Shown: positions 5,389 to 62,468, numbered from the stretch's first letter. The stretch: 64,000 bases of DNA from Candidatus Versatilivorator sp. (GCA_965207735.1 OZ242296.1:4192001-4256000); one strand, 5' to 3'. Notes: a model not told the origin generated them from the letters alone. Numbers and translations: made by a program.

Positions 5389-5395
5389 GAAACGC

Positions 5396-7909: not shown

Positions 7910-7946
7910 CCTCTTCTCCCTTCCCGCCCGGCCCTGCGCCTACGTT

Positions 7947-9356
7947 CTATGGGCCGGAGGCCGCCATCTCCGCTTTCATCGGGACGGGAACAAAATCCCG
8001 CAACAGCTTCCCCGACGCCACCTCGTGGATCCGCACCCGACCTTCGAACCCCGCCGTGGCCAACTCCCGTCCCCCGGGGTGGAAGGCAAGGGTATAGATC
8101 CCGGACTCATGCCCGGTGCAGGCCGCCAGGCGCTCTCCGCTCTCCGCGTCATAAATGGGGGCCTCGGCTCCCGCGCCGGCTACGGCCAGCTTCCGGCCGT
8201 CGGCGCTGAACCCCAGGGCAAAAATCTCCCCCGACTGGCGTTCGAAGGCGCGGATCAAAGTGCCTTCCTGGCCTGCGAAGATCTTCTTGGGTCGATCCAT
8301 TCGATAGTAATAGGGGATTCGCTCCTCGCCGCCGACCACCACCCGGTCCCGACTGGGATGGCGGGTCACGGCCGCCAACTCCTTCCTCAGCTTGTTGAGG
8401 TTCTCGATGAAGGCTCCCGACTCGGCATGCATCAGTTTGGCCGCGAAATCCCGCCCCACCGAGACGATTCGCTTTCCGTCCATGCCGAAACGGGTCCCCA
8501 GAACCCAGTTCTCATGGTGGTTGGTCTTCAGCAACTCCTTTCCCGAAGACACCTCATGGATCCGGACGGTGCTGTCCGAGCATCCGAAGGCTACTCGAGA
8601 ACCGTCGGGCGAGAGGGAAACCCCGAAGAGGGTGTCCTTGCAAACGGTGACCGAGCGTTTCAACTTGCCGGAGGCGAGCTCCCAAAACTGCAGCTCCCCG
8701 AAACGGGCCGGCGTCCCACCCCCCGCCACCAATGTTTTTCCATCCGGAGTGAAGACCAACGACTGGATGCGATCGGAGAGTCCCACCAGGCGGCCTTCCA
8801 GCCCGCTACCGTCCGATCGGTGCAGCAGGACCTCCCGGTATCCCGAAACGGCCAGCAGGGAACCGTCCGGCGAATAGGCCAGGGCCGTGATCACGGGTGG
8901 CGAGGAATAGACCGGAGGCTCGTTCTGAGAAACCCTGTCGAGCTGGATGGGCGTGTCGTCGGTGGCGCCTGCCTTCACCCAGGCCCGGAACCTGGCGATG
9001 GTCTCCCGGTCCAGCGGCGGACCGCCCAGAGGCATCAGGGGCGGGCGCCTGCCTTCCATCATGGCGATCAACAGGCTTCTCTCGGGATCTCCCGGGACCA
9101 GGCCCGGTCCGCTGTGACCTCCCTTGAGAAGAGTCCGATACTGGGTCAGGTCGAGGTGCCCTTGCTGGATAGCCGGCTGGTGGCAGCCCTGGCAGTGCTG
9201 CTGGATCACCGGACGGATGTCCCGGAAATAGCTGGGAGCCGACGCCGGCTGCTCCTCCGCGGATTCCGCCCTGCCGGGAGCGGAGGGGACCACCGTCCAG
9301 ACCAGCAACAAACACCCCACGGCCTTCAGGAAGGACAACCGAAAAAACCCTGCCAT
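7947..9356 (-). CDS. Planctomycete-type cytochrome c + WD40 repeat protein
   Basis: Likely start MAGFFR at 9356; YFRDIRPVIQQHCQGCH (CxxCH), then repeated xSPDG WD40 blades. Confidence 0.85.
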   Translation of the reverse strand: MAGFFRLSFLKAVGCLLLVWTVVPSAPGRAESAEEQPASAPSYFRDIRPVIQQHCQGCHQPAIQQGHLDLTQYRTLLKGGHSGPGLVPGDPERSLLIAMMEGRRPPLMPLGGPPLDRETIARFRAWVKAGATDDTPIQLDRVSQNEPPVYSSPPVITALAYSPDGSLLAVSGYREVLLHRSDGSGLEGRLVGLSDRIQSLVFTPDGKTLVAGGGTPARFGELQFWELASGKLKRSVTVCKDTLFGVSLSPDGSRVAFGCSDSTVRIHEVSSGKELLKTNHHENWVLGTRFGMDGKRIVSVGRDFAAKLMHAESGAFIENLNKLRKELAAVTRHPSRDRVVVGGEERIPYYYRMDRPKKIFAGQEGTLIRAFERQSGEIFALGFSADGRKLAVAGAGAEAPIYDAESGERLAACTGHESGIYTLAFHPGGRELATAGFEGRVRIHEVASGKLLRDFVPVPMKAEMAASGP

Positions 9357-9550
9357 TGGCAAAAACCTGCGCTTGGAAAGAAATTGGATGGAGCGGTACG
9401 CTTCCAGCCGCAATGATAGGGCTTCCGCCACTCCCCCGTCAAGACGGAGTCGGGCCGCCAACCCTGCCGGGCGAACGACTCCAAGGTGGTTGATCCGGGC
9501 GCTGGGGGCGAGGGCCCGGCTTGTCTGAAACAACCGAAAAAAGGCAAAAG

Positions 9551-9581
9551 ACAAAAGAGTTATCCACGAAGGGGCACGAAG
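9551..9581 (+). repeat. Intergenic CACGAAG-family repeat, copy A
   Basis: ACAAAAGAGTTATCCACGAAGGGGCACGAAG; 30/31 identical to 24593-24623. Confidence 0.8.
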
Positions 9582-9830
9582 GCGTGACGGCTCTGCCGCA
9601 TCGGCAGGGCTGCGGCCTGGCAACCCGGAACGACCCCCTCCAGGGGCACGTGTGATGGGAGGAGGCCCTCCCGGGAGCGCGGGGGTCCCGCCCGCATCGT
9701 CTAGTAATGCTGTCCATCCATGTTCAATAGGTGGAAAACCGAATTGGGACCAACAAACTGCTGAAGATATACTGTGAATTCGTATTCAGCGACCCGCTGA
9801 GAAATGCGGGCGTAACTCGAGAGTCCGAAT

Positions 9831-41936: not shown

Positions 41937-42086
41937 GTGTAGTTAGGCCCAAGGGATCGGTGGCGTGAACCAAGTCAAGCAGGGGAACTTCTCCCAAAGC
42001 GCGCCAGGGATCGAGCCACACCCGAAGGCCCACGGCCGTCAAGGCCAGGTTGACGAGAATGACTTGGCTCCAGGTCTTCATTTCGC

Positions 42087-42501
42087 CCTTCCCGAAGGGA
42101 TCACTGTGGTGAGAGCGACCTCCCCGCAAGGGGGGCAAAGGGTGTCCCGACCCCTGTCCCCCTTTGCCCTCCCCCGTGGCGCACCAGCGGCCGAAATAGG
42201 GGGGTCGCTCTCACCACTTTCTCCCCTCTCGTGCGGCGCGCCGCCGCGACGGGAGGGAGGGGGACGCGCGAGGCGCAGCCTCGCTTCGCTTTTTCGCAGC
42301 GGACGCGGGAAATCCGTCCTATCCCGCGTCTGATGCGGCGTTTCGGGAAAGTCCCACACCACAACGGCAGGGCTCCGCCCTCTGAGAGAGAGGCGTTGTG
42401 CATATCAAGATCATGTCCCCCTTAGATGTCCTCCCCCCCGTCTAAAAGGGGGACACCCATCTGACGGCATCTGCTTGACCCCCAGAGGCGGAAATCTTCG
42501 G
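42087..42501 (+). repeat. Integrase-associated folded non-coding element, copy 1
   Basis: 15-bp stem 42106-42120/42203-42217 with nested hairpins; homologous to 46840-47254 and, inverted, to 59374-59804. Confidence 0.85.
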
Positions 42502-43159
42502 TCATTCCACGGTCATCGAGTGAGCCCGTTTCTTGCTCCGTTTGGTGGACTTTCTTTGCGGCGGCATCGAAACCGCCATGGCGTTCAAGTGTCTCCCAAT
42601 CGGTGTTAGCGATGGCCTGGCGCAGCCCCGCCGCTTCTGTCTTGGCCGCTGCCGGGTCTCGGGTTGTCCAGGCCTGGAGAACCCGCTGGGTGCGGTCGAG
42701 ATGTTGCTGGTCGCACTTATCGGTTCGACCGTCTCAATTCTCGAGCGCCTCAGATCTTCCTTTGACGAGCCGCACATTCTGATCGTCCCGCTTGCAGGCA
42801 GTAATGCACGATAAAGTGGTTTATCGGGAACTGTTCCAGAGGCCTTGAGGACAGGCGCCAAGGCGTCCTTGAGGTCTCTGTGTACATTCAGGGTTCTTGT
42901 CAATCTTGTCAATCAAAAGAGGAGGGGGAGGGGGTAGGGCTAATTTTAGCCTTTTATTGTACAAATAGAGATGTTTTGAGCCTGAAGTGGTGTAGGTGTA
43001 AATTGTTGTATAATACGCACGTTGCAGAGATATTAGAAAATAAATCCCGTTGTTTGCGTATTTGTGCAATAATTGCTCCAACTTGTTGGCAACGTGTCCC
43101 AAACACGTCAAAAACGTGTAGAACTTACGCCCAAGGGATCCGGATTCTGAGGTCTTCTG

Positions 43160-45379: not shown

Positions 45380-45520
45380 TCCAGAAAGTTCCAGAGATAT
45401 CTACTAAAGTATTGTAAGTAGACCTTTATGAGTCACTTATGGTATATTGGTGTCTATTGATGTCCAGGGTGTTCCCGGACGTTCAGGGTGATCTTAGGGG
45501 TGATCTCACAGGGGGTGATC
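45380..45520. promoter_or_regulatory. att-arm-like region of integrase 2
   Basis: TCYAS at 45380/45390/45400 and related pentamers at 45453/45463/45473; TTTATGAGTCACTTAT at 45425-45440; GGGTGATC three times just before the start. Confidence 0.55.
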
Positions 45521-45522
45521 CG

Positions 45523-46701
45523 GTGACCCGATACCGCAAGAAACTCTCCGCCGCCTTCGTCCGCTCCGTCGAGCAGCCCGGACTCTACTGGGACGAGCAT
45601 GGCTTGATCCTACGGGTCAAACCGTCCGGATACAAGCAATGGATCCAACGGCTCTTCATCCACGGCAAGCGCCGCGAGCTGGGTCTGGGCTCTCTTCGGC
45701 TCGTGACGCTGGCCCAGGCCCGGGAGAGGGCCATCGCCAACCGCAGGCTGGCCCGCTCGGGAGGCAATCCCCTGGCCTCCCGGCGCCACTCCGTCCCGAC
45801 GTTCGAGCAGGCCGCCGCCAAGGTCTACGCCATGTACCGGCCCAACTGGAGAAGCGACCATCATGCCGCCCAGTGGAAAGGCAGCCTGCGCAGCTACGTC
45901 TACCCCAAGCTGGGCCGGATGCGGGTGGACGGGATCACGACGGCCGATGTCATGGCCGTCCTGTCGCCGATCTGGAACACCAGGCAGGCAACGGCCCGGC
46001 GGGTGCGGCAACGGATCGGCACGGTGATGAAGTGGGCCATTGCCCAGGGCTACCGGATGGACAATCCGGCCGGGGAAGCGCTCGGGGCCGCGCTGCCGAA
46101 ACAGGGCGGCATCCCACGCCACTTCAAGGCTCTGCCCTATGGGGAGGTGGCCGGGGCGATCCGGACGGTGCGGCAATCGGAAGCAGACGTGGGGGTCAAG
46201 CTCGGCTTCGAGTTCCTGGTGCTGACGGCGTGCCGGTCGGGGGAGATGCGCGGGGCGCGCTGGGCGGAGATCGACCTGGAGGCGGGAGTGTGGACGGTTC
46301 CCCCGGAACGGATGAAGCACCAGAGAGAGCACCGGGTCCCGTTGTCTGCGGGAGCGCGGAGGATTCTGGCCGAGGCGAGGCGGATCGAGAGATCTTCCGA
46401 TCTGGTGTTTCCGACTCCGGCCGGTGGCCCACTGCCGGACCGCGATCTCAGCACCCTGCTGCGGGAACTGGGAATCGGGGCCGTGCCGCATGGGTTCCGC
46501 TCGTCGTTCCGGGACTGGGCGGGGGAGCGGACCGATGCTCCCCATGCGGTGATGGAGGCGGCGTTGTCGCACGTGGTCCGCAACCAGGTGGAAGCGGCCT
46601 ATGCCCGCTCGGACCTGTTCGAGCGGCGGCGTGTCCTGATGGAACAGTGGGCGGAGTTTCTGGCCCGGGGGACGGAGGAGGACGCGGAGCTCCTTGCGTA
46701 A
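45523..46701 (+). CDS. P4-like tyrosine integrase 2
   Basis: KKLSAAFVRS...GLILRVKPSG...RELGLG; LTACRSGE, HGFRSSFRDW, ALSH and EAAYARSD; paralog of integrase 1. Confidence 0.93.
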   Translation: MTRYRKKLSAAFVRSVEQPGLYWDEHGLILRVKPSGYKQWIQRLFIHGKRRELGLGSLRLVTLAQARERAIANRRLARSGGNPLASRRHSVPTFEQAAAKVYAMYRPNWRSDHHAAQWKGSLRSYVYPKLGRMRVDGITTADVMAVLSPIWNTRQATARRVRQRIGTVMKWAIAQGYRMDNPAGEALGAALPKQGGIPRHFKALPYGEVAGAIRTVRQSEADVGVKLGFEFLVLTACRSGEMRGARWAEIDLEAGVWTVPPERMKHQREHRVPLSAGARRILAEARRIERSSDLVFPTPAGGPLPDRDLSTLLRELGIGAVPHGFRSSFRDWAGERTDAPHAVMEAALSHVVRNQVEAAYARSDLFERRRVLMEQWAEFLARGTEEDAELLA

Positions 46702-46839
46702 AGAGGCCCACGGCATCGGTCGCCCGCACCAGGGCTGGCAGGGCGACCTGCCCCGGACCGGCGAGGGTGAGAGCCAAGCGCGAAGTCCGGAAGCAGTCAA
46801 GACCAGGTTGGGCAGGACAACCCGGGTCCGGGTCTTCAG

Positions 46840-47254
46840 CCTTCCCGCCAGGGATCACTGTGGAGGGAGCGACCCCGAAAAGGGGAGGTTAACCGTGAAC
46901 TGTGAAGTGAAACGGCTAACCCTCCCCGATGCCGCACTAGCGGTCAGAAAGCAGGGTCGCTCCCTCCACCTTCTCCCCTCTCGTGCGGCGCGCCGCCGCG
47001 ACGGGAGGGAGGGGGACGCGCGAGGCGTAGCCTCGCTTCACCTTGTGGCGTCAGACACGGAAAATCCTTGTTGTCCCGTGTCTGATGCGGTGATTGGGGA
47101 GAGTCCTCGACCACGGCGGCGAGGACTCCGTCCTCTGAGAGAAAGGCGTTGTGGGTGTGGAAATCATGAAACGGCCGAGTGAACATCGCTGCGTTGTAGC
47201 CGTTTCACCCATACGACGGCATCTCCTTGACCCCCAGAGGTAACAATCGTCGAT
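46840..47254 (+). repeat. Integrase-associated folded non-coding element, copy 2
   Basis: 16-bp stem 46860-46875/46954-46969; compensatory changes relative to copy 1. Confidence 0.85.
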
Positions 47255-47574
47255 CAGTGCAGGGTCATTGTTTTACGCCGATTGGTCCCCCAACTGGAGG
47301 ACATTCTTAATGGTGACCTCAATGCCACCATGGCGTTTGACGGTGTCCCAATTAGCATCCGCGATGGCCTGGCGAGGGGAGGCCACGGTAACCCCTCATT
47401 ACTCTCATACATTGCTCCCGTTTCTCTGGAAATCGGTCGCGATAATCTTGGATTGCCTCCAGGCATCGAGACCAGCGGTCTCTGAGACGAAAATCGGGGT
47501 TGTGGCCATTTTCAGTGTATTATGGGTATGCTGAGGGCCGGGGAAATACGTACTACGCGGCCTAGCTAGAGGAC

Positions 47575-48771
47575 TTAGGGGGGGCTGTTCGAGTAATAAC
47601 GACCGATGCTCGCTGCCACATGAACACTTGTCGTGTAAGAACGTCCATCGGATCGAAGGCAGTCCGGATCGCGGTCCGGGCCAAAAGCACGTATGCCCGT
47701 TTGCATCCGGGCGGCGAGCTCGTTCCTGATGGTATCAGATAAGTCGTTCCACCAGCTTGGTTTCATGTAGACGTTCTCAAGATGCTCGACCGCCAGCTGG
47801 ATTCCCCTGTTGGCCTTCTCTTCATCCGGCACATCTTGGAACGAGCGCCCGAACAACGCCGCAGGGCCCTTGTGCCCTTCAGTCCAGCCAATTACAAGCA
47901 CGCTTCTGCCATTGAGAACTGTCAAGTTAAGACCCACGTGCTCGTGTGGTGAATCACCGCGGGTGACTATTTGCAGTAGATTGCCAGCAAAGTCATACTC
48001 GGGATGAAATGCTCCACAACCCACGACAGGCAAGACAGCCGAAAAAACCACGCCGACAAATCGATATTCTTCGAATTGCTCCTCGATGAAGATTGTGTCG
48101 TATTGTTTCTTCCACCGCTCGCAGTCAGTCAGACCGCGTTTAGTTCCCTCTTTGTGAAGGTGGATATGCTGCTGCAATTCGCACTGTTCCCAATAGGGCT
48201 TTCCACGGTCGAATTCCCGCATTATATTCACGGTTCGAAGTGCGGCCTTCTTGTTAAATAGTTCATAGGAGATTGCCCGAAAGCCCAACAGGAAACAAGA
48301 CTTTGGAGTGAGCGGGACAGTGTGGCTTTCGACCGGCTGGAACATCGAGTGGTCATGGGTATCACAAAATCCCATGAATGTGGAAGCGCTCCGCACCCCG
48401 ACCTTACTGGGCACAAAGGCGCCATGGTTCCGTAACCGGTCTCGGAATCCTGCTTTAGCGGAAATGACATGGCCGTTTTCGGCTATGGCAGCGAGCCCGC
48501 CACGTCGTTGCACCGTGTGTGATCGAATTATTCTACGCCCGCAGTTTTCAGAACTAGCTTCCGGATGAGAACAGTACCCCCCTTCGAATTCATGGTCCAG
48601 CTGTGACAACTGGTCGTGGAAATTGACGGGCGGTTGAGACTCCCGGTTTCGGTGGCACTGCTTCCATTTTTTGCCGGAGCCGCACCAGCAAGGGGCATTG
48701 CGCGGCATTTTAAGGTGGGGCGTAAGGTCATCTGGTGGAACGAACTGCGCATGGAGGGAAGCGTGAGCCAT
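47575..48771 (-). CDS. SEC-C motif protein with additional Cys/His clusters
   Basis: RNAPCWCGSGKKWKQCH; CSHP...C...IRSHTVQR; FMGFCDTHD. Confidence 0.8.
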   Translation of the reverse strand: MAHASLHAQFVPPDDLTPHLKMPRNAPCWCGSGKKWKQCHRNRESQPPVNFHDQLSQLDHEFEGGYCSHPEASSENCGRRIIRSHTVQRRGGLAAIAENGHVISAKAGFRDRLRNHGAFVPSKVGVRSASTFMGFCDTHDHSMFQPVESHTVPLTPKSCFLLGFRAISYELFNKKAALRTVNIMREFDRGKPYWEQCELQQHIHLHKEGTKRGLTDCERWKKQYDTIFIEEQFEEYRFVGVVFSAVLPVVGCGAFHPEYDFAGNLLQIVTRGDSPHEHVGLNLTVLNGRSVLVIGWTEGHKGPAALFGRSFQDVPDEEKANRGIQLAVEHLENVYMKPSWWNDLSDTIRNELAARMQTGIRAFGPDRDPDCLRSDGRSYTTSVHVAASIGRYYSNSPP

Positions 48772-48919
48772 TTAAGGTGGTAAATCTAATTCTGACCGTC
48801 GACTTCTAAATGGTACGCGGTCAGCTTCTTGAACACAATGAGTCTGCTGGCGGGAACGCAAGCGTCGACGAGGTCGACGGTTATCGCGAAAGCGGTCTCC
48901 TGAGGCATGTCCTGGCGTT

Positions 48920-49066
48920 GGCAGACCTATTCTCCAAGGATGTGCCACTGGAGGATGTGCTGTACTTGGCCGGCCACGCTAACCCTAGGACCACTTTATT
49001 CTATAATTCTATGATCGCTGACGGTGGAGCGTTACCCTAAATGTTGTGGAGAGATTTTCCGTGTGA
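48920..49066 (+). pseudogene. C-terminal remnant of a XerC/D-type tyrosine recombinase
   Basis: DLFSKDVPLEDVLYLAGHANPRTTLFY, then a frameshifted VTLNVVERFSV*. Confidence 0.7.
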
Positions 49067-49462: not shown

Positions 49463-52400
49463 GTGAATGTCCATATGAATTCGGAAAACAATGCACGAAA
49501 GGTTGCGGCCGTTCTGGCGCACCCTTCGATTTTGCGTGGGGCTTGGTTGCGCGTGGACGCTTGGTACAAACACGGGGAACTCGCGCCGCAGCCGGAACTT
49601 GCGCGATGGCGTCTGCACCCCGAGGCCATGCTTCGGGATCTGGCACAGCGGTTGCGCGAAGATGACTGGAAACCGGAGCTATGGCGGCAGGTGCCCTATC
49701 CCAAGAAGGGCCGGTGTTTGAGGCACTACACGATGCCGACGGTTCGGGACCAAGTGGCGTTCATGGCTCACATGGTCGCGTTGGGACCGATCCTCGATCA
49801 ACAGTTCGCGAATTTCGCGTTTGGGAACCGGTGGTACCGTCCGATCGCGTGGGACCGAAGGCAGCATCCCCCAAGGTGGGTGCATCGCCCATATCCAGTG
49901 CTCACGGACAGGAGCTATCTATCTTACGCACGATCTCACGGGTTGTTTCGGCGCGTGGCGCATTGGACAGTGGCTCGGATGACGCAGGCAACTCTCCCCG
50001 CGGAAGACAGCTCGGGCCGGATGCTGCGTCCCGAGGACTACCAGGATGGGACGCTCCCGGAGTGGACGAAACCGGAGTGGTGGACGGGAGCAGTTAACTC
50101 GGCGCGCGCTTTCTGGGCTTACTTGGACATTGAACTCGCGTATCCATCTGTTCGCATCGAGCGGTTAGCCTTGGCGATGGAACGCGCACTCCTGCAGCCG
50201 GTCCAACTCGTCCAACTCGAACAACTATACGACGGCTGCCCGGAACCCGTATTGAAAGCACTTGCCATCACAGACGTACGAGTGGAGGTCGGGCGCCGAC
50301 TGACCACAACGTTGGGCGAGATCACTTTGGACGCTGGCGGAATTCCGCCAGATGCGTGGAGCCCTCCTCAGGGACACGATTTCCCTAGTGTGACAACAGA
50401 ACGTTTCAACGGGATACCTACTGGACTCATCATTTCTGGAATGTTGCTCAACGTGGCGCTGATGGAGGCGGATCGAGTGATCCGCCGATATCTCGAACAG
50501 ACCTCGGGGAAACGACGCGGAGCGATCGTCAGGTTCGCGGACGATATGTACATTCTGTCCCGATCGTCTGAGGGCCTCTTATCCTTGGTTGAAGCCGTTC
50601 ACGGAGCACTGTCGGGGACCGAGGAGTCTTCCCTTGCAGTACCTAACGAGGTTTCCAACATCTGCATCAATTTGAGAAAGATAAAGCCGGATGCGGTCCG
50701 GGGAATCATCTACAAGTACCTCCTTGATCAGGGTTGGACCGAGTGTGGAAGCAACAAGTGTAAACAGCCGTTGCCCCCGTCCACAAAGGAGTCAAAGAGT
50801 AACCAGGCATCGAGCGTACGGATATCGGACTTGGGAACGGCGCTCTTGCCCGGCGGCCGGTTTGCGTCCGAACAGGAAGCCTTGGAGCGCGCAGCTGTCG
50901 AAAAAGGAGATGTCGGTCCGTTCGTCACGCGGCTAGTCGAACGGCTGAGCGACATGGGGACGGACACGCTTCGACAGCGATTCGGTGAGGGCGCTCGGGA
51001 TCATCTAGCACGTTTACACGAACTGGCACGCTTCGACATAGAGGACGAGCAGGTACCGCCTGAGACGCGTCGCACCTTCGCGGTCAACCGCCTTGTTCGT
51101 GCATGGTTGCCAAGGTCCTCAGAGCTGGGCGAAGAGGATAGAGAGTTGCGCCAGATCCGCGAGACCATCGGTTTCGTGCTGGACCGCACGCCATGGAAGT
51201 TCGCGATCTGGCGGGCGTTGGTTCGCGGCGCGGCGCGACGCCCGCTTTTTGAGGCGAAGGACAACGGGATAGCGGCTCAAGAGGCGGCAGCGTGGTTGTG
51301 CGACCGCATCCGTCGAATCGCGTGTGCAACGGACTCCATAAACTCGACGACTTGGCTATCCGCTTGGCCGGAGATCGATCGTGACGACGGCCACACCGCT
51401 GAACGGACAGACGAATGGCAGCACCTCTATCTGTCGTTCCTACGAGCTGTCTTTTGGCGCTCACTCGCGGAAACCGTGCGTGAACTCGGGCGTTATGCCA
51501 AGCCGGTGGAGGACGATGAATCAACTGAGCGGGTGCCATCGCCGTTTCTCTGGACGGCAAGAGCGGTTGGAGACGGACGCTACGGACAAGCGGTGGATGA
51601 CTTGGGCCGCATCGACGAATGGGTCGAGATACTGTACCCAGCAGCGAATGACGTGAAAATCGACACGTGGCCGTGGGAACTGGACGAGTTCGTCGGAGCA
51701 GTTTTGGCCGTGCACACGACCACAGAACTCGCGCAGGCATGGCGAAGCACTAAGGGTCCGGGATCCGTGTTGCGCGTGCCTGAGTCCCCTCGATTGGAAG
51801 GAATGCCGAAAGCGACCCGGCTGTTGTCTCGGACGGGAAGGCTCCAGCAGAAGGGATCGAGGCGTAATCGGAAACTCGACCTCTGGGCGCTGGCGAACGT
51901 GCAGTTGGGTCGTTGGGATCAAGGGTTAGGAAGTGTTCTCTTCCCGCCGTCCGGAAAGCCGCGCATACGGCAAGCGGAGCGCAATGCACAGGAGGCTGTG
52001 GCCGCAGGATTCTCCCTAGGGTGTTTTAAATGGATCGGTCTAAGGCTTGCGAACCGAGCGGCTCCCAAGATGGACGAGGGTGCAGGCGCTTTTGATCGGA
52101 ATGCGTTTGTGCTCCATGACTATGATCGAGCACGGCGCGTAATCGTCGGCCAAACGACTGAGGCAGCGTCGCGCCCAACGGTCCACCGGCTCCTTTGGGG
52201 GAGGCCGACTGCAGCCAGGCTGAATGGATGGCAAATGGCCCAGTGGGAGATTCCAGCGGTGGGATTACCCCTTCGCGTTGCTGCGGCACTGTTCAGTGTC
52301 GTCCGTGAGACAGCAACTACTGTGGGATGGGAATGCAGTTTGGGACCGCTGACGTGGCTGATCGACGATGACGCGGGAGTCTTGGTCGCGGGTCGCTGCG

Positions 52401-53923
52401 AGCAGTTGGAAGGACTCGAAAAATCCAACGACTTGGCCAACCACCCACAAATCAAACCGGAAACGGATGAGGAACTGATATCAGTACGAAGGTCGACGGC
52501 GTGGGAGGTTCTGCCGCACGCGGCGTTTTATCTGCCGTTTGAGTCGGCTGCTGCGGGTAGAGTGCACGTGGAGAGCTACGTCCTGTACTGCGATGTGCTG
52601 CTTCTGTTGACTTTGCTTGACGGTGCCGAGCGGATTCTCGATATCTTGGCTAGATGGGGAATTAGGGGAACGCCGTTCGTGGACCGATGGGGCTGGCGGT
52701 CGCGGATTCACCTGCCGCTCCAGGCATGGAAGTCCATTGAGTCGATCCTCCGCTGGAGCGCGTCGCCGGGGTCCAATATTACGTCATCCGGGAGGCAACT
52801 CGTCGATTCGCTGGCCCAGTACTCCCGCAAATATGTCTCCTGGGAGGATTTCCGTCCTGAGAGGATTGACATCGGTCTTTCTCCTCGACGGGATCTCGAC
52901 ATCGTTAGGACGGTCCGTCCGGCGGGCGAATTAATCGGCCCAGAGCTACCTCCCGAATTGCACATCGACGAGACTCAGATTATGGATGTGCTTGTCGCAC
53001 GTGTGGGGCAGGTGGCCGCATGGCCGAACAACGCGCACGTAGTTAGACGATTCCCGAGGATCCCGTCTACCATGGCGAACTTAATGATCGAACAGGTTGC
53101 CAATGTGTTCCTTGCGCCCGCGCAAGCCGTCGACGAAGCGGCTCCGCAATTGGTAGTCCTTCCGGAATTGTCAATTCCGCAGCAAGAAGTCGGGAGTCTA
53201 AGGGACTTGGTGAGAGCCGAGGGTAAAGGAGCAGTAGCGGGACTCTATTGGCGCGCGCTGAAACCTGCATTTCGGCCCTCAAGGCCTTCGACACCAACAC
53301 AGGCTTGGTTGGTAAACGAAGCCGAAGTTGTAGTACCCGTCGGCCGTGACAATGGACCGCCGACAGTCAGGTGGTTTCGTGTCCGAAAGCCGGTGTCTGC
53401 GCACACCGAAGACGGTCTAGCGAGGGCGCTATCGAAAGTGTCGGGGACAAGGTGGCGAATGCTGCGGGGTAACCAGTGGTTTCGATTTGTGCATCCGAAT
53501 TGGGGGGACTTTACAGTGGCGATCTGTGCGGACCTGATCGAATCGGCGCCCTGGAGGGCGTTTCGGGGTGAACTCTTACACCTTCTAATGGTGGCATTTA
53601 ACAAGGATGTCGACCTGTTTGACTCGCTGACATGGGTGCGTGCGTACGAAAACTACGTCAACGTCGTGTCTGTGAATCACGGTCGATTCGGCGGGTCGTT
53701 CCTGTGGACTCCACGCAGGACCCATGAGCGTGAGTTAGCGAGACTTCGCGGCGGCCACCTGGTGTTGACAGCCGACGTTCAGTTGCCGGTCAAGGAACTG
53801 CTGGGAGCACAGAAAGCGGGTACAGCGCAGGCGATCGAGGAATCCGCCAAGAAGTGGCGTAACGAAGCCTCAGTGGAGACGAAGTTCAAGACTCCGCCTC
53901 CTGGATTCCGTAGAATTTTGTAA
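49463..53923 (+). CDS. Reverse transcriptase-nitrilase fusion (UG/Abi-type, DRT1/UG1-like), 1486 aa
   Basis: RT motifs PYPKK..R, RDQV, FGNRWYR, LDIELAYPSV, GIPTGLIISGMLLN and VRFADD (50534-50545); C-terminal C-N hydrolase triad LPELS (E 53165), VRKP (K 53387), AICAD (C 53525), plus AFNKDV. Confidence 0.9.
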   Translation: MNVHMNSENNARKVAAVLAHPSILRGAWLRVDAWYKHGELAPQPELARWRLHPEAMLRDLAQRLREDDWKPELWRQVPYPKKGRCLRHYTMPTVRDQVAFMAHMVALGPILDQQFANFAFGNRWYRPIAWDRRQHPPRWVHRPYPVLTDRSYLSYARSHGLFRRVAHWTVARMTQATLPAEDSSGRMLRPEDYQDGTLPEWTKPEWWTGAVNSARAFWAYLDIELAYPSVRIERLALAMERALLQPVQLVQLEQLYDGCPEPVLKALAITDVRVEVGRRLTTTLGEITLDAGGIPPDAWSPPQGHDFPSVTTERFNGIPTGLIISGMLLNVALMEADRVIRRYLEQTSGKRRGAIVRFADDMYILSRSSEGLLSLVEAVHGALSGTEESSLAVPNEVSNICINLRKIKPDAVRGIIYKYLLDQGWTECGSNKCKQPLPPSTKESKSNQASSVRISDLGTALLPGGRFASEQEALERAAVEKGDVGPFVTRLVERLSDMGTDTLRQRFGEGARDHLARLHELARFDIEDEQVPPETRRTFAVNRLVRAWLPRSSELGEEDRELRQIRETIGFVLDRTPWKFAIWRALVRGAARRPLFEAKDNGIAAQEAAAWLCDRIRRIACATDSINSTTWLSAWPEIDRDDGHTAERTDEWQHLYLSFLRAVFWRSLAETVRELGRYAKPVEDDESTERVPSPFLWTARAVGDGRYGQAVDDLGRIDEWVEILYPAANDVKIDTWPWELDEFVGAVLAVHTTTELAQAWRSTKGPGSVLRVPESPRLEGMPKATRLLSRTGRLQQKGSRRNRKLDLWALANVQLGRWDQGLGSVLFPPSGKPRIRQAERNAQEAVAAGFSLGCFKWIGLRLANRAAPKMDEGAGAFDRNAFVLHDYDRARRVIVGQTTEAASRPTVHRLLWGRPTAARLNGWQMAQWEIPAVGLPLRVAAALFSVVRETATTVGWECSLGPLTWLIDDDAGVLVAGRCEQLEGLEKSNDLANHPQIKPETDEELISVRRSTAWEVLPHAAFYLPFESAAAGRVHVESYVLYCDVLLLLTLLDGAERILDILARWGIRGTPFVDRWGWRSRIHLPLQAWKSIESILRWSASPGSNITSSGRQLVDSLAQYSRKYVSWEDFRPERIDIGLSPRRDLDIVRTVRPAGELIGPELPPELHIDETQIMDVLVARVGQVAAWPNNAHVVRRFPRIPSTMANLMIEQVANVFLAPAQAVDEAAPQLVVLPELSIPQQEVGSLRDLVRAEGKGAVAGLYWRALKPAFRPSRPSTPTQAWLVNEAEVVVPVGRDNGPPTVRWFRVRKPVSAHTEDGLARALSKVSGTRWRMLRGNQWFRFVHPNWGDFTVAICADLIESAPWRAFRGELLHLLMVAFNKDVDLFDSLTWVRAYENYVNVVSVNHGRFGGSFLWTPRRTHERELARLRGGHLVLTADVQLPVKELLGAQKAGTAQAIEESAKKWRNEASVETKFKTPPPGFRRIL

Positions 53924-54171: not shown

Positions 54172-57100
54172 GTGACAGATCCAGTTTCCGATATAGACGA
54201 GACGCTTGCAACCTTGCGGATCAACAGGGACGCGCGGCGATCTGACGGGACGGCGTTCGAGGACGCGGTGCTTCGGCATGCCGAACACATTCCCGGCTGG
54301 GAAATCGCTCGGTGTTGGAGATACCCGGAGTGGCCGCATCGAATGTCGGTCGGTGTGCCGCTGCCGTCTCACGACGCCGGCATCGACCTTGTTGCCGTAA
54401 AGCATGATGGTTCGCGCGTCGCCATCCAGTGCAAGGCCCGTAGCGGTGGCGGGTCGGTAACGATAACGGAGGTGCAGAAGTTCGCGGGGGCTGCGCCGCC
54501 ATCGGTATTCGCGGAGCGCTGGTTCGTGGCGGAAGCCGGTCGGAGCGAGGCGACGGAGAAAGCGGCTGCAGTGGCACAGGTGACTTTCGTCGATTTCGAG
54601 ACGGCGCTGGCCGAAGCACTGGAGGATGCGCGGGAACGGGAGCGGGCAGCGACGGAACCTGATCCTCGAACGGCAATGCAGCAAGAGGCGGTGGCCGAAT
54701 GCGTGCAGGCGCTTCGCGCCGGTTTGCCGGAACACAAGGATCTCTGGGTCGGCAGCAATCCGAAAGAATGGATGCCTTCTGACGCGACGCGGGCGACGTT
54801 GGTGCTGCCGTGCGGCACCGGAAAGACCCGCGTATCGATGCGGATAATGTCAGAGTTGGCGGAGGCAGGTGACCTCGGCGTCGTGCTCGTGCCGAGCATC
54901 GCGCTTATAGCACAGGTGCGGCACGAGTACCTGTCGCACATCGGGTGTCCGGTGCGGACGCTGGCCGTGTGCAGCGACGCGACGGCGGGTCATGTCGATG
55001 TCGAGCGGGATCCGGATCTCGTGGTGGACCCCACTCGGGACACGGGACAGGTCCGCGCGGCCGATGTCGGTTGCCGGGTAGCGCAGAGCACCGCCGCGGT
55101 CGCGGATTGGCTTCGCACTGGCAGGGACTCGACCGACCTGCGTATCATCTTCTCGACGTACCAGTCAGCGCACCACGCGGCGGAGGCGCTACTGGCGGAG
55201 CGCCGGTTCGCGCAGGTCCTGATTCTGGACGAAGCTCACCGGACGGCCCAATTGCGGCCAGCTAAGAGCCAGCGACAGGCTGAGCGACTGCGAAGGTTCA
55301 CGCTGTGTCACGACCAGGATGCGTTCCCGGCCCGGTACCGTCTGTACCAGACGGCGACGCCCCGCGTCTACGATGCGAGCAATGCGAAGGTGGCCCGTAT
55401 CGACCGCACGAAGTGGATCGTGGCGAGCATGTCGGACGAGTCGATCTTCGGTCCGGTAGCCTACCGGCTTCCGTACCAGGAAGCGGTCAAGAAGGGCTTT
55501 CTGTCGGACTACCGGATCATCGCGATCGGAGTCGATGGGCGGGCATGGGCCGCGGCCAATCGGATTGTCCAGTTGTTCGAGCAGTCGAACGAGACGCGCG
55601 GGCTGACGACCCGAGAAGCGCTCTCCTGGCTGGTCTACGGTGTGACCCTGGCCGGGGGCGCGGTCGGAGACGATGGCAGCGTGCGCGTGAGCCGGTCGCT
55701 GGCGTTCCTGAACAAGGTCCAGCGTTCCAACCAGATGGTGAGGTGGCTCAACAGCGACGAGGGACGCGCAGAGATCGAGCGGTACTTTACCGAGGGCGGG
55801 GTTGAAGGGATCGGTCGGCAGTATGCCGTGGAGCATCTCGACGCCGGGCACCCCGTTCGCGAACGGCGGCGGGCGCTGCGCGATCTCGCGGCGGCGCATA
55901 CCGAGAAGCCACGCGGGATCGCGAACGTTGGTATCTTCGGCGAAGGAACCAATAGTCCGAGTCTCGATGCGGTGGCTCTGCTGGCTCCGCGCCGCAGCCC
56001 GACCGACGTGATCCAGATCGTCGGCCGGTGCATGCGCCGGGCGCCGGGAAAGCAATTCGGGTACGTAATCGTACCCGTTCCGTTGCCGCGGGGTATCGAC
56101 GCAGAGACGAGTCTATCGATGGATACGCTCGGCGACGAGTGGAAGGCGCTCGGTGAGGTTCTGCGGGCGCTACGAGCACACGATGGACGCATTGAGGACG
56201 AGATTTCAAGCCTGCTGCAGATCTACGTCCCGCCGGAGGCTGAGGAACCGGTTCGGCAGCCTGTGATCGTCAGGGACGGCGCTGTGACTCGCATGGGCGT
56301 TTGGAGTGGACCTCGGGGCCACGCCGAAGACGCCGTGGCGCGAGCGGAAGTGCCAGCGTGGCGTGAGCCTGCGGCGGGCGGGGCTCCTGTCACCGAGTAC
56401 TTGACGGAGGACAAGGGCTTCGCGTGGCAGGAGGCTCCGGCCACAGGCAGTGAGTCTGGGCGTTTCACCGACGGCCAGGCTGCCGACGATGAGAGGATGT
56501 TGGATGAGTCGCCGGTCGTGTTGGTCATCCAGCGCGGACGAGGCGGCGTCCATTGCACTGTGCAGGCTGCGGCGCGGTCCATGGAGCGGCATGGCGGCGT
56601 CGATGTGGCGAAAACCGTAGAGCGGGCGCGTGAGGCTGCCGAGTCACTCAACCCGCTGCCGAGGCGTCCCAGGCGGCGCGTCTCCCCGCGCGGTGGGTCC
56701 AAGAACGGCCGGTCGGCTGGGTTGTCGCCGACGCAGCGACTTCTAAAGCAGATCCGGCAGGATGGCGTAGGCCGGGATTTGCGTGTCGAAGTGATGGAGA
56801 AGTCCGGGCTACGCGGAAACGAGGTGCGCGACTTCAACCTGCTGATGGAGCCCGTCCAGCGCTCATCGGGGTATTTAAGTCGCGAGGGACTGGAGGGGCG
56901 ACTGCGTGCGGTGCTCGGCATGGAGCACTTGCAGTCCACCGACGCCTTTGCCGATGCGTGCACGGTCAGCGTGTTGTTACTGATGAACGCGGCACTGTTG
57001 CACGCACGGCTGGAGGACACGAAGGGTCAGGCGGCGGATCTGGCTCGTGTCGGGCGCCTTCACGACGTGGCCATCGGGAGCGAACCGGTCAAGGTACTGC

Positions 57101-59148
57101 GCGAGGCATGGACGGCCGTGCTGCGGTATGACTATGAGCCGGTGTTGCGGCCGGCACTCGATGTTCTTGAGGCGCTGGCTGCAGCGGACGCGCACGGCGG
57201 CGTCAACCAGGCGCTGCGAGCGGTCGCCGCCTGGGCCGAGGAGAACGCTGAGATCTACGTGTCAATGGGAATGGAGTATGCAGGTGAACTGTTCAGTCGC
57301 GTTCTGGGTAACCAGGCGTCCGACGGCGCGTTTTTCACACGTCAACCGGCCGCAAGGCTGCTCGCTGAATTGGCGCTTGACGGTACAGGCGAATCTGAAT
57401 GGACCGAGCGGCGGACATGGCAGCGACTCCGAATGGCGGATCTTGCGTGCGGTAGCGGAACTCTACTCAATGCGTATGTGGAGGCAGTCAAGGATCGGAT
57501 ACGCGAGGCCGGAGGCGACGAGCGAAGCGCCACGGAGTTCCACAAGTACGCTGTAGAGAGGCTCGTGACCGGTCTGGACATCAATCCTGTGTCCTTGCAA
57601 ATGGCGGCCGGCCGACTGACGCTAGGGAACCTCCAGGTCGATTACCGGAAGATGGGTCTCCGAGTTCTGCCGTATGGTCCCTTCGATGGCGACGCGGTAC
57701 GGCTCGGGTCGTTGGAGTTGTTAACCGACGAAGATGTGGTAGGGCCGGCACCGGCGACTACGGGCTCTGCGGAAAGGAAGGGACAGAGCGCGCTGTTCGA
57801 GTGGTCTACTGTGGACCCGGAGGTCGTGCAGGATGTTGAGGAGCGGCGGATCGTAATGATGAATCCGCCGTTCACTGCAAACGACAAAAAGGGCCGGAAG
57901 TTCACGCCGGAAGTCGTAAAGGCGCTTCAAAGGCGGGAGTTGCAGATCCGCGATCGGCTAGCGGTTAGCGATTTCGACGCGGCAAGCGTCATCGACGCGA
58001 ACAGCATAAGAACGATGTTCACGCCGCTCGCGGAAAAAGTCCTGTCCGAAAGTGACGGCGTTCTCGCCAAGATCATGCCGGTGACGGCCTGCACGGGAGC
58101 CTCCGGACTCGAAGAACGGCAGTTTCTCGCTTCTCGGTTCCACATCCACATGATCGTGTGCTGCCATGAGCCGCAGGAGCCGAATTTGTCTACTCACACG
58201 TCGATCAACGAGTGCCTGTTAATCGCGACGCGGCACGGGGCCGATTCCAGGCCAACCACCATGTTTGTCAACCTACGCCGCTTCCCGAAATCAGTGGAAG
58301 CTGTCCAGCACGTCGTAGCCGCGATCCGAGACCGGCGTGTCGACGAGGTGGGCACGCTATGCAAGTGGCCGGCCGATCGCGTGCGCGCCGGCGACTGGTC
58401 TCCTGTCCAGTGGTTCGATCCGAGGTTAGCCGAAGCGGCAACGGGACTTCGAGCTGCATCCGGTCTGTGCCGGCTGGATGTACTGTACAAGATGGGACCG
58501 GCCGGCCGACGTATCCGTGATGCGTTCGAGCGCGTGACGGACGGATCTTCGACGGCAAGCGATGTGGCTGTATTCGATTCGATCTCAAGCGACCTTCGCG
58601 TCTCGTTGGCCGGCGAGCCGGATGCTATGTGGCGGCCGAGACCCAGAAAGGAGCGCATGGTACGTTCATATCTTGCGCAGACGGGCTGGATGCTGCTGAT
58701 GAACCGTGCCGACACCCATGCGGCCTCGGTCGTGGGTGTGTGCGCTTTGGCGAAAGGCTTTGGGTCCGGCCTAATGCCAGTGGTGACGGAGACGCGCGAG
58801 CAGGCCAAGGCCCTAAGCGTTGTGTGGAACGGTACTCCCGTTCTCCTGCAATTGCTGAACATGCGCACCAAGAAGTTGACGTACCTGAACTGGTCGGTCG
58901 CGCAACTTGGATCGGTACGTGTCCCGGTAACGCTAGATGACGTGGGAGAGCAGGCTGCGCTGGTAGGTGTCTATGACCGTCTGTGTCGGGAGCAGCTGCA
59001 ACCCTGGACACACGCGGATATAGATCCCGTCCGGCGTGAGATCGACGCCGCCGTTGCCCAAGCATATGGGCTCTCGGAAAGTGTACTGGCGGATTGGCGC
59101 AAGTGGTTGGCGAAGGAGCCGACTATAGCCAACCGGAGTCCGGTCTAG
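54172..59148 (+). CDS. Type ISP-like restriction-modification enzyme (Mrr nuclease-SF2 helicase-N6 methyltransferase-putative TRD)
   Basis: DAGIDLVA...AIQCK; LPCGTGKT, STYQS, DEAH, TATP, QIVGRCMR; DLACGSGTLL and MNPPF. Confidence 0.85.
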   Translation: MTDPVSDIDETLATLRINRDARRSDGTAFEDAVLRHAEHIPGWEIARCWRYPEWPHRMSVGVPLPSHDAGIDLVAVKHDGSRVAIQCKARSGGGSVTITEVQKFAGAAPPSVFAERWFVAEAGRSEATEKAAAVAQVTFVDFETALAEALEDARERERAATEPDPRTAMQQEAVAECVQALRAGLPEHKDLWVGSNPKEWMPSDATRATLVLPCGTGKTRVSMRIMSELAEAGDLGVVLVPSIALIAQVRHEYLSHIGCPVRTLAVCSDATAGHVDVERDPDLVVDPTRDTGQVRAADVGCRVAQSTAAVADWLRTGRDSTDLRIIFSTYQSAHHAAEALLAERRFAQVLILDEAHRTAQLRPAKSQRQAERLRRFTLCHDQDAFPARYRLYQTATPRVYDASNAKVARIDRTKWIVASMSDESIFGPVAYRLPYQEAVKKGFLSDYRIIAIGVDGRAWAAANRIVQLFEQSNETRGLTTREALSWLVYGVTLAGGAVGDDGSVRVSRSLAFLNKVQRSNQMVRWLNSDEGRAEIERYFTEGGVEGIGRQYAVEHLDAGHPVRERRRALRDLAAAHTEKPRGIANVGIFGEGTNSPSLDAVALLAPRRSPTDVIQIVGRCMRRAPGKQFGYVIVPVPLPRGIDAETSLSMDTLGDEWKALGEVLRALRAHDGRIEDEISSLLQIYVPPEAEEPVRQPVIVRDGAVTRMGVWSGPRGHAEDAVARAEVPAWREPAAGGAPVTEYLTEDKGFAWQEAPATGSESGRFTDGQAADDERMLDESPVVLVIQRGRGGVHCTVQAAARSMERHGGVDVAKTVERAREAAESLNPLPRRPRRRVSPRGGSKNGRSAGLSPTQRLLKQIRQDGVGRDLRVEVMEKSGLRGNEVRDFNLLMEPVQRSSGYLSREGLEGRLRAVLGMEHLQSTDAFADACTVSVLLLMNAALLHARLEDTKGQAADLARVGRLHDVAIGSEPVKVLREAWTAVLRYDYEPVLRPALDVLEALAAADAHGGVNQALRAVAAWAEENAEIYVSMGMEYAGELFSRVLGNQASDGAFFTRQPAARLLAELALDGTGESEWTERRTWQRLRMADLACGSGTLLNAYVEAVKDRIREAGGDERSATEFHKYAVERLVTGLDINPVSLQMAAGRLTLGNLQVDYRKMGLRVLPYGPFDGDAVRLGSLELLTDEDVVGPAPATTGSAERKGQSALFEWSTVDPEVVQDVEERRIVMMNPPFTANDKKGRKFTPEVVKALQRRELQIRDRLAVSDFDAASVIDANSIRTMFTPLAEKVLSESDGVLAKIMPVTACTGASGLEERQFLASRFHIHMIVCCHEPQEPNLSTHTSINECLLIATRHGADSRPTTMFVNLRRFPKSVEAVQHVVAAIRDRRVDEVGTLCKWPADRVRAGDWSPVQWFDPRLAEAATGLRAASGLCRLDVLYKMGPAGRRIRDAFERVTDGSSTASDVAVFDSISSDLRVSLAGEPDAMWRPRPRKERMVRSYLAQTGWMLLMNRADTHAASVVGVCALAKGFGSGLMPVVTETREQAKALSVVWNGTPVLLQLLNMRTKKLTYLNWSVAQLGSVRVPVTLDDVGEQAALVGVYDRLCREQLQPWTHADIDPVRREIDAAVAQAYGLSESVLADWRKWLAKEPTIANRSPV

Positions 59149-59373: not shown

Positions 59374-59804
59374 GTCGACGATTTCCGGCTCCGGGGGTCA
59401 AGGAAGTGGCGTCGTATGGGTGGCCACCTTTCAGACGGGGGGTGGCTCACACAGGTGGCGCACCAAGTGGCTCACGCACTTGACCAACACAACGCCTTTC
59501 TCTCAGAGGGCGAAGTCCTCCTCATTGTGGTCCAGGTTGTGCCCGGAAACCCGCATTGGAAGCGGGTTGGCAAGGATTCTCCGAATCCTCTTCGGCAAAG
59601 CTCCGTGCGGCGCCGGCTTGAGTTGTCCCCGCCTCGCACGGCGCGTCGTGGCGCCGCACAGGAGGGGGAGGAAGTGGAGGGAGCGACCCCCCCTTTTTGG
59701 CCGCTGGTGCGCCACGGGGGAGGGCAAAGGGGGACAGGGGTCCGGACACCCTTTGCCCCCCTTGCGGGGAGGTCGCTCTCACCACAGTGATCCCTACGGG
59801 AAGG
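59374..59804 (-). repeat. Integrase-associated folded non-coding element, copy 3 (inverted)
   Basis: Reverse complement starts CCTTCCCGTAGGGATCACTGTGGTGAGAGCGACCTCCCCGCAAGGGGGGCAAAGGG, nearly identical to copy 1; shares CCTCTGAGAGAAAGGCGTTGTG and CTTGACCCCC blocks. Confidence 0.85.
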
Positions 59805-60126
59805 TTGTCAGACAGGCTCGGGCAGCCGGGCACGATGGCTCTTGCTACCGACGGCCAGCGTCGGCAATGCAGCCGGGGTTGGATCGGATTTTTCGTTAGC
59901 CTTGAGCTGGTCCAGGTAATCGGCCCACAATTGCATCATCTCTCGCCTCTGCTGCAAATGAGCCGTGCGGTTGTAAGCCCGCCCAAGAGGATCTCGCACT
60001 ACATGTGCCAACTGGTGCTCAATGACGTCAGGACGAAAGCCCAGCACTTCATCGAGGTGGGTTCTTGCCATGGCCCGAAAGCCGTGCCCCGTCATTTCCT
60101 CCTTGCCAATGCCCATGCGCCTTAGG

Positions 60127-62055
60127 CCGAAGTTCCTGACCCACCGACAAGATAACTCCTTTATCTTCAATCATCAATCAGGAATCTCAGGTTGTCTTGC
60201 CTGGGAACATCCTGATGAGCTCGAAGGCCCTTTGCTGTAGCGGGGTCGGCTCGGTCAATCGCTGGACTCGCGGACCATCGGGTTCGGAGGGCAATCGGCA
60301 CTGGTGGCGGGCCCGCGTCGCCATCTGCGCCATCAACGTCTCCAGGCTCTGCAGCGGCAAGCCGTCCTCGGTGAGGCGTTTGCTCTTCTTCCGTTTGGCG
60401 GAGTCCGACGGCTGGGCCGCCAGCACCGGGTCTCGCCGTGCCCGTTCCGCTTCCAACTCCTCGTCATCGAACAGCAACGGAGCCAGGGCCAGCCGCAGAT
60501 GCCACTGAACGTAATAGGCCAGCAGGCACAGGAACAGATGAGCCCGCACCCGGCTCTCCACCCGATGACGGATGGGGCGGATGTGCAGGTCGACGGTCTT
60601 GAGGGAGCGGAAGGCCCGCTCCACCCGCGTCAGGTCCTTGTAGCGGCGCACCACCGCGGCTGTTGGCAGGCGATCGGCTGGCTCGCTGGTCCTCAGCATG
60701 TAGAACCCGTCCAGTTGCGCCTCCCGGATGATGGCGTCGGTGCGCCGTTCATAGTGGAAGGACCCGTCTGCGATCTGGGTCCGGAAGTGTTTGGCCACCT
60801 GGAAGCGGTTCTTGACCCGGCCGACTTTCTCGGCGATCTCGGTCGCCGACAAGGGCGTGCGGGTCCGTCTGGCCACCTGGCGGGCGATTCCGGCCAGCGC
60901 CTCCTCGGTGGCTGTCAGCAAAGCCTCCCGCTTCCGCCGCCGATGCTCGGCCAGCAGCGGGTTGTGGCAGACGATGAGCCTCTCGCCCGGATAGTCCGGG
61001 CTGCGGACTTCGGCCAGATGACGCTCGTCGAACAGGGAGAGCTGAACCGCCTCGCTCTCCACCAGACGGCGTATCTGGTGGTGGCGCAGGGCTGAGACCC
61101 ACCCCACTCCCGGATGACGCTTCAGATGGCTGATCTGCGTCTCGGTCAGCAGCCCGCGGTCCCCCACCAGCACCACCCGCTCCAGACCAAACCGACCCCG
61201 CACCTTCTCCACCTGATCCCCCACCGTGGTCGGATCCCCCGTGTTGCCGGCATAGGCCTGCACCGACAGCGGCCGCCCCATCTGGTCGGCCAGCACCCCG
61301 TAGACCACCATGGGCCGGTCCCGCCTGCCGTCCCGGTTGTGGCCGAACTGCATCAGCGAGCAGGTCTGGCCTTCGTAGTAACTGCTGCTGACGTCATAGA
61401 GCACCGCATCCCCTTCCGCCAGGTGCCGCTTGGCCAGCTTGCGCTCAATCCGGTCCTGACGCTCCAGCAACCAGTCCATGGCCTCATAGAGATCGTCCTC
61501 GTCGGTGTCCTCAAGGGACAGTTCCTCACCCAACGTGGTGGTGTGCCAAAGACGGGTGGTGGCCAGCTTGGAGGCCGGATAGAGCAGACGCTGCAGGATC
61601 ATGGCCAAGACCCGGTCCCGTTGGGGAGAGGGTCGGGAATCGATCAGCGCCGGCAGCTTCAGCTGCCGCACCACTTCCAGCAGCAACTCGACGTGGCCAT
61701 GAGGCAGGGAGCGTTCGATGGCGAAGAGTTGGTCGGGATGGACCAGGGGTTCGTTCTTGAGCACGCGCCGGAGGCGCTCGATCTTGTCCTTGGGCCAATG
61801 GGAGAGATTGGCCAGGGTGCGTTTATGGACCTTTTTACCCTCACGGCGGCCTTCGCGCAGGAGGATGGCAGGGGGAGAGTTGCGGTTGGGGACGGTTTCG
61901 ACGTACATGGGACTACGATATCACATACAACTATCATGTCAAGATAAATGCTAATCATATACATGGGAACAACACTCCACACGCCTCAATCCTCTTCCCC
62001 AAGAAAACAAATGGCTTAAGGCGATTTTTTGGGTGTAAAATGGGAGGAACTTCGG
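60127..62055 (-). mobile_element. IS1634-family insertion sequence, 1929 bp
   Basis: IRs CCGAAGTTCCT (60127) and AGGAACTTCGG (ends 62055); 6-bp target duplication CTTAGG at 60121-60126 and 62056-62061. Confidence 0.92.
60187..61908 (-). CDS. IS1634-family transposase
   Basis: MYVETVPNRNSPPAILLRE, LYDVSSSYYEG, VGDRG, VERAFRSLK and RVRAHLFLCLLAYY. Confidence 0.92.
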   Translation of the reverse strand: MYVETVPNRNSPPAILLREGRREGKKVHKRTLANLSHWPKDKIERLRRVLKNEPLVHPDQLFAIERSLPHGHVELLLEVVRQLKLPALIDSRPSPQRDRVLAMILQRLLYPASKLATTRLWHTTTLGEELSLEDTDEDDLYEAMDWLLERQDRIERKLAKRHLAEGDAVLYDVSSSYYEGQTCSLMQFGHNRDGRRDRPMVVYGVLADQMGRPLSVQAYAGNTGDPTTVGDQVEKVRGRFGLERVVLVGDRGLLTETQISHLKRHPGVGWVSALRHHQIRRLVESEAVQLSLFDERHLAEVRSPDYPGERLIVCHNPLLAEHRRRKREALLTATEEALAGIARQVARRTRTPLSATEIAEKVGRVKNRFQVAKHFRTQIADGSFHYERRTDAIIREAQLDGFYMLRTSEPADRLPTAAVVRRYKDLTRVERAFRSLKTVDLHIRPIRHRVESRVRAHLFLCLLAYYVQWHLRLALAPLLFDDEELEAERARRDPVLAAQPSDSAKRKKSKRLTEDGLPLQSLETLMAQMATRARHQCRLPSEPDGPRVQRLTEPTPLQQRAFELIRMFPGKTT

Positions 62056-62468
62056 CTTAGGGCGGCCAGAACGGCATTCTCGCTCATGGGTCGGTCTCCT
62101 CTGGGAGTCCGACCGCTCGGAAAGACATAGCGTCCCTGTCCGGTCAACGGGTAGAGTTCGCGCAGAACCCCCACCGCCTGGCGGGAAAGGGGCACCAGAT
62201 GCTGGGAATCGGTCTTGATGACGGTGAAGCGCCATTCGGCCGTTTCCAGGTCGATATCGGACCATTCGGCTCGGCGGAGTTCGCCGGGCCGGACGAAAAC
62301 CAATGGGGTCAGTCTGAGGGCACAGCGCACAATCAGTGATCCCTCGTAGCCGTCCAGGACTCTCAGCAATGGGCCAATTTTCTTGGGATCGGTCAGGGCA
62401 GCGAAGTGCCCTCCCTTCACAGGTGGCAAGGCACCTCGCAAGACCTGGAGGCTACTGTAGATGTTTCG

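Follow-up and report, generated by a model that had tools for sequence, protein, structure and literature searches.

The window examined here, a 64,000-nucleotide stretch of the Candidatus Versatilivorator sp. genome (GCA_965207735.1, OZ242296.1:4192001-4256000), carries one gene for a very large fusion of a reverse transcriptase (RT) and a nitrilase. The encoded protein and its homologs, which we refer to as the window-gene family, are an uncatalogued class 3 UG/Abi lineage that stands beside UG6 and has no primase. On sequence comparison, the family forms a clade of its own, and of the systems sampled the UG6-like ones are its closest relatives. The gene is real and intact, as the original prediction had proposed from the sequence alone: the open reading frame (ORF) at 49463-53923 comprises 1486 open codons, the RT aspartates and the nitrilase residues E1235, K1309, E1316, and C1355 are present, and the motifs quoted in that prediction were found in the protein. 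The gene is single-copy in its genome, which is one 5.26-Mb contig.

We numbered residues from position 49463, where the ORF opens at a GTG codon. The likely start is the ATG at 49475; M5 is the start in the collection's copy of the protein and in close homologs. The whole gene (49475-53923, plus strand, as are all its parts) encodes an RT, an alpha-repeat region, a predicted pseudokinase lobe, and a nitrilase. RT fingers and palm (residues 5-406, 49475-50680) contain D222 (50126-50128), PTG replacing PQG (50417-50425), and FADD (50534-50545). A variable linker follows (residues 407-487, 50681-50923), which is 27 to 118 amino acids long across the family and matches in position the unresolved priming loop described for DRT1 in the available part of PMC13275509. 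Beyond it lie a predicted alpha-helical (HEAT-like) repeat region (residues ~488-896, 50924-52150), a natural fission point at which relatives stop and restart (residues ~896-905, 52148-52177), and the predicted pseudokinase C-lobe, from hinge to end (residues ~899-1135, 52157-52867). The nitrilase (C-N hydrolase) domain covers residues ~1173-1470 (52979-53872), with E1235 at 53165, K1309 at 53387, E1316 at 53408, and C1355 at 53525. Near the C terminus, an FKTPPPG motif (53885-53905) is the likely counterpart of the active-site lid of DRT1 (PMC13275509, available part), a likeness drawn via UG1 relatives and not from the DRT1 structure 9YFD itself. A tail of the K-x-P-P-x-G/F type is common to the window-gene family and to UG6-like, UG1, and UG5 references, and K1476 is present in at least 90% of the A5 alignment. 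Pfam recognized a weak RVT_1 stretch in the protein and nothing else.

The protein has the features of class 3 enzymes: a large RT fused to a C-N hydrolase, intact RT aspartates and nitrilase E-K-E-C residues, and a long extension between RT and hydrolase. Together with the profiles and trees, this supports the earlier reading of the gene as a divergent defense RT. On PADLOC profiles, the window protein scored 124 bits with RTasNitrilase, 89 with RT_UG5-nitrilase, 60 with Drt1a, 57.5 with RT_UG6, and 19 with RT_UG29. Across 41 family proteins, scores were at most 130 bits on any PADLOC profile and at most 103 on RT_UG6; with scores this weak, annotation probably misses or misnames the family. 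References on their own profiles reached 1248 to 1356 bits (six full-length DRT1 proteins, Drt1a) and 1016 to 1064 bits (four UG5-large proteins, RT_UG5-nitrilase), and UG6-like proteins reached 232 to 388 bits on RT_UG6. Profiles built from the family pointed toward UG6-like systems, with 169 to 220 bits for UG6-like RTs against 45 to 62 for UG1 and 18 to 26 for UG5, and with 109 to 159 bits for UG6-like nitrilases against 53 to 78 for UG1/UG5. HHalign aligned the family with UG6-like proteins over residues 24-549 (probability 100, E 1.4e-40).

The RT tree and the nitrilase tree each resolved four supported clades, and UG1 (100/99) and the window-gene family (99/97) were separate in the RT tree. 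When no outgroup was included, the family and the UG6-like rows were united by a branch with support of 96/93 (RT) and 78/74 (nitrilase); rooted trees left open the order among UG1, UG5, UG6-like systems, and the family, and one long-branched tree grouped UG6-like rows with UG5 and DRT8 (support 82). These trees took in 11 to 20 UG6-like rows, from a set grown from two weak matches, and left out UG24, UG29, UG5-small, and the published UG6 references. The family falls outside the sampled UG6-like rows, among which Mestre's 15 UG6 references are not included; a search for published UG6 references in 401, 401, and 63 genomes, itself without a positive-control match, found none.

These comparisons fix the subgroup more closely than the original prediction thought possible by eye, and the placement inside DRT1 that it named as lowering the novelty was not found. 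Membership in DRT1/UG1 is ruled out by the Drt1a score and by separate RT and nitrilase clades, and membership in UG5-large/DRT11 by the RT_UG5-nitrilase score and both trees. UG5-small does not fit, given no RT_UG5_small match at E≤0.1 and a nitrilase that is fused rather than a separate ORF, and neither does UG29, given that the protein is not ~2500 amino acids long, has no N-terminal DnaG, and barely scores with RT_UG29. A member-level match to UG6 is likewise rejected by the RT_UG6 scores.

A homolog search with the window protein found 210 proteins, with 40 to 70% identity among the at least 120 listed, and when 1.84 billion cluster representatives were searched with a profile of the middle alone (residues 410-1180), 184 matched; the best 150 of these matches are considered here. 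Family loci in GTDB number 42 and include Acidobacteriota, Pseudomonadota, Spirochaetota, Gemmatimonadota, Myxococcota, Bacillota, and Planctomycetota. No member was detected in viral_contigs, and plasmids gave distant matches only. We found no description of the family in the literature, where Mestre tables S2-S4 or the DRT11 tree could list members, for example as "unclassified" RTs.

Conservation was counted in 73 dereplicated long family members. The RT aspartates and the nitrilase E-K-E-C residues are near-invariant, and the middle region also holds invariant residues: S496, R661, W697, and E739 in the repeat region (73/73 each; T489, 70/73) and G1054 and E1056 in the kinase-like lobe (73/73). 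The linker after the palm has no conserved serine, the best S/T/Y column reaching 38/73. The original prediction had singled out FADD; the first residue of this box is F in 65 members and Y in 8, so FADD is not a special mark, and we reject it as a sign of inactivity or novelty. FADE replaces FADD in two spirochaete split members (L020 8001-10655, L032 7914-10619), and one locus (L036) has PIG where the family has PTG.

The family has undergone repeated fission at one point. At the 42 loci, the gene is an intact fusion in 15, is split at a single boundary in 15, and is truncated, broken, or interrupted in 12. Fourteen of the 15 split loci have the second gene's start codon -13 to +3 nt from the stop of the first, directly before a TLHRLLW motif, and we therefore reject frameshift or assembly artifacts as the source of the split forms. 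The remaining split (L049) restarts 78 nt downstream and was not resolved by the script. When the window and the 30 clean loci were placed in one tree, five changes between fused and split forms were needed, and strongly supported branches make three of these unavoidable. The family provides one-gene and two-gene UG6-like machines without a primase from many phyla, in which RT, kinase-like lobe, and nitrilase are separable along evolution's own cut.

The lobe after the fission point is, on its predicted structure, a probable pseudokinase. The kinase-fold match of residues ~899-1135 rests on structure and begins near the hinge in most rows, and the family consensus lacks the signature of an active protein kinase (N-lobe Gly-rich loop, HRD, and DFG). 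DFG occurs anywhere in 1 of 144 family domains, compared to 8 of 9 true kinases. Kinase homology is not proven by sequence (E 0.07, the same as the negative control), and profile homology of the lobe to the kinase-like part of UG6-like proteins was not significant. UG6-like proteins themselves matched kinases with probability 94.7 and E 6e-8, through a dead kinase-like part. Foldseek did not show the kinase match, its list being filled by nitrilases, and the ESM Atlas gave no usable match for residues 897-1140 and generic RT clusters only for the whole protein. A viral library search returned one CN hydrolase and nothing else. For the RT fingers, which carry a long insertion in common with UG6, the best fold match was to group II intron RTs. 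Searched by sequence against the PDB, the family profile matched DRT1 9YFD best (E 1.8e-29), a structure that was not among the fold-search matches.

A defense role of some kind is very likely for the window gene. We lean toward DRT1-type abortive infection by a single gene, an analogy that draws on the intact active-site residues of both RT and nitrilase. According to the available part of PMC13275509, DRT1, DRT5S, and DRT5L make template-free, protein-primed DNA; DRT1 requires both active sites and its C-terminal tail, and its DNA adducts build a dormant filament in which a C-terminal lid covers the site of the nitrilase, whose substrate is unknown. DRT11 requires both sites and no noncoding RNA or transmembrane gene (PMC13436386, available part). 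Because the window-gene family has retained both active sites and the alpha-repeat and ends in a similar tail, DRT1 logic is the best guess for it, and the original suggestion that DNA synthesis may gate a toxic amidase has, by analogy, a published precedent in DRT1 (PMC13275509, available part). The RT would prime on one of its own hydroxyl residues and, needing neither an RNA template nor a primase, make short single-stranded DNA in a template-free reaction. DNA adducts and nitrilase faces would then form an oligomer, and within it the FKxPPPG tail would cover the nitrilase site like a lid and keep the enzyme dormant. Phage replication would disturb the adducts or the oligomer and open the lid, and the opened nitrilase would hydrolyze an essential amide-bearing metabolite or make a toxin, causing cell death. 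The kinase-like lobe would be a noncatalytic adaptor tying the nitrilase to the RT module, which we propose as the reason it stays joined to the nitrilase whenever the gene splits. Its invariant G1054 and E1056 also make the lobe a concrete candidate for sensing phage, the step that the scheme lacks. In a bolder and rather doubtful extension, it would be an allosteric sensor that binds a phage factor, or a host defense protein disabled by phage, and opens the nitrilase lid, and pseudokinase and nitrilase would form a detachable sensor-effector subunit, repeatedly split from and restrained by a protein-primed RT. If true, this would mean pseudokinase signaling inside a DRT and a primase-free minimal UG6.

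The family could instead be UG6 minus its primase, with the nitrilase fused and working as UG6 does. Family RT and nitrilase profiles favor UG6-like systems over UG1/UG5, the HHalign match and PTG point the same way, and UG6-like proteins share the domain order, dead kinase-like part included. Our 80 UG6-like loci have DnaG, RT, and nitrilase in a row, the nitrilase being separate in 64, fused to the RT in 7, and missing in 9 (mostly cut short). These points keep the idea serious but, in our judgment, unlikely, because RT_UG6 scores separate the two groups, as do supported clades in both trees, the fission point lies before the kinase lobe in the family and after it in UG6, and no UG6-like protein appears among the best 150 of 184 middle-region matches, as far as checked. 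The DnaG profile, which was built from the UG6-like loci and is positive in 72 of those same 80, matched 0 of 42 family loci up to 8 kb on either side, and in the genome of the window it found two distant genes only. We think it somewhat less likely still that the RT depends on a primer or template supplied in trans (primers from host DnaG, phage nucleic acid, or an unrecognized RNA), its DNA being a signal rather than a structural brake. The DnaG genes of sister systems, the intron-like fold of the RT fingers with their UG6-like insertion, and the linker without a conserved priming serine would fit such an enzyme, but all three class 3 proteins in the available part of PMC13275509 are template-free and protein-primed. 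Many loci also leave little space for an RNA, as in 14 of 30 the RT ORF starts no more than 130 nt from the end of an ORF on the same strand. No conserved partner gene, transmembrane gene, or known RNA was found at family loci or in the window region: apart from the RT's own frames, each gene family recurs in at most 8 of 43 loci, and Rfam had no match in window positions 40000-64000. Counts of promoters and terminators matched the level of shuffled sequence.

Genomic neighbors bear on two further readings. An accessory role in BREX or restriction systems, such as a back-up effector fired when those are inhibited, would account for BREX genes on both sides of the system at 9 of 42 loci (split forms at 8 of the 9), DISARM genes at one locus (L043), and the type IIG restriction-modification gene next to the window gene. 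It is improbable, since, like hotspot cargo, the family occupies two different positions across two BREX types and also neighbors many unrelated systems or housekeeping genes, and since DRT1 and DRT11 work alone (PMC13275509 and PMC13436386, available parts). That the gene has no defense role and encodes a mobile-element or metabolic enzyme is very improbable: it does sit among integrases, and 14 of 34 relative loci have no PADLOC neighbor match, but the patchy spread over many phyla, the defense neighbors, and the class 3-type nitrilase and tail speak against it. PADLOC matches (E≤1e-8) were found for 34 of 73 neighbors and at 20 of 34 relative loci, compared to 1 of 17 ORFs taken from the window's left part; the 73 neighbors were hand-picked, so this enrichment is indicative only.

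The window gene sits in an integrase-rich island with a P4-like integrase (45439-46701, plus strand) and is followed by a type IIG-like restriction-modification gene (54172-59148, plus strand; PADLOC REase_MTase_IIG 292 bits, also Pfam), a neighbor that is not part of the system. The RT and restriction-modification genes are flanked by two oppositely oriented integrase-plus-element modules. An element of ~0.5 kb follows each P4-like integrase (42085-42622, 46839-47374, and inverted at 59375-59804), with segments 71 to 94% alike and no Rfam match. On the minus strand, 59808-62441 holds a third integrase copy broken by a DDE transposase (60187-61908), whose inverted repeats of 20 nt lie at 60118-60137 and 62045-62064. 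A 398-amino-acid SEC-C motif protein with no other family match is encoded divergently from the RT gene (47575-48771, minus strand), and a short ORF just upstream of the RT gene (48810-49040, plus strand) resembles what we take to be the C-terminal remnant of a tyrosine recombinase. Outside the window, genome G000 has at least 13 near-identical 456-amino-acid frames of a group II intron-like RT. Elsewhere, a Sphingobium plasmid (L052) carries DRT1 and DRT8 genes facing each other (5001-8693 and 9531-11159), and genome G002 has a split family member inside BREX (L017) and DRT1 at another place (L065). A stand-alone, 293-amino-acid DRT1-type nitrilase (L066, 8761-9642) lies among successive genes of one orientation; no RT was found in 16 kb of sequence.

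Of the DRTs, class 3 enzymes are the least understood, with an unknown nitrilase substrate and a UG6 that was never tested. Among them, UG6 (PMC9226505, available part) is the closest sampled RT plus nitrilase, and it shares PTG and the order of RT, helical region, dead kinase-like part, and nitrilase. UG6 has a DnaG primase, many UG6-like loci also have a downstream hydrophobic ORF, and the window-gene family has neither. Family members are fusions of 1340 to 1690 amino acids or are split before the kinase-like lobe, whereas UG6 is split after it, and they have FADD or FVDD where UG6 has YVDD. UG6 is described with a separate nitrilase; some UG6-like loci (L120-L126) encode RT-nitrilase fusions of 1336 to 1362 amino acids behind a DnaG gene. 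In many UG6-like operons (L074-L153), the ORF after the nitrilase is ~200 amino acids long, matches no Pfam family above cut-off, and is not mentioned for UG6 in the available part of its description.

DRT1/UG1 (PDB 9YFD; PMC13275509, available part) likewise combines RT, alpha-repeat, and nitrilase in a single chain with a conserved, lid-like C-terminal tail. The window protein is ~250 amino acids longer and has no profile match to DRT1 in its middle, and the main text of the DRT1 paper (PMC13275509), in the part available, does not contain the word "kinase." DRT1 has PQG and the priming residue S402, whereas the window-gene family has PTG and no S402 equivalent. UG5-large/DRT11 (PMC13436386, available part) is also an RT-nitrilase fusion that needs no transmembrane partner, and UG5 has fused and split forms; DRT11 is 1005 amino acids long, and the family is in a separate clade from UG5. 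UG29 (PMC9226505, available part) shares a large RT with a C-terminal C-N hydrolase and differs in its ~2500 amino acids and N-terminal DnaG. The protein-primed class 1 RTs AbiK, Abi-P2, DRT4/UG15, and DRT6 share the RT and alpha-repeat, aligning over most of the RT half of the window protein (380 to 459 residues), and differ in having no kinase-like or nitrilase domain.
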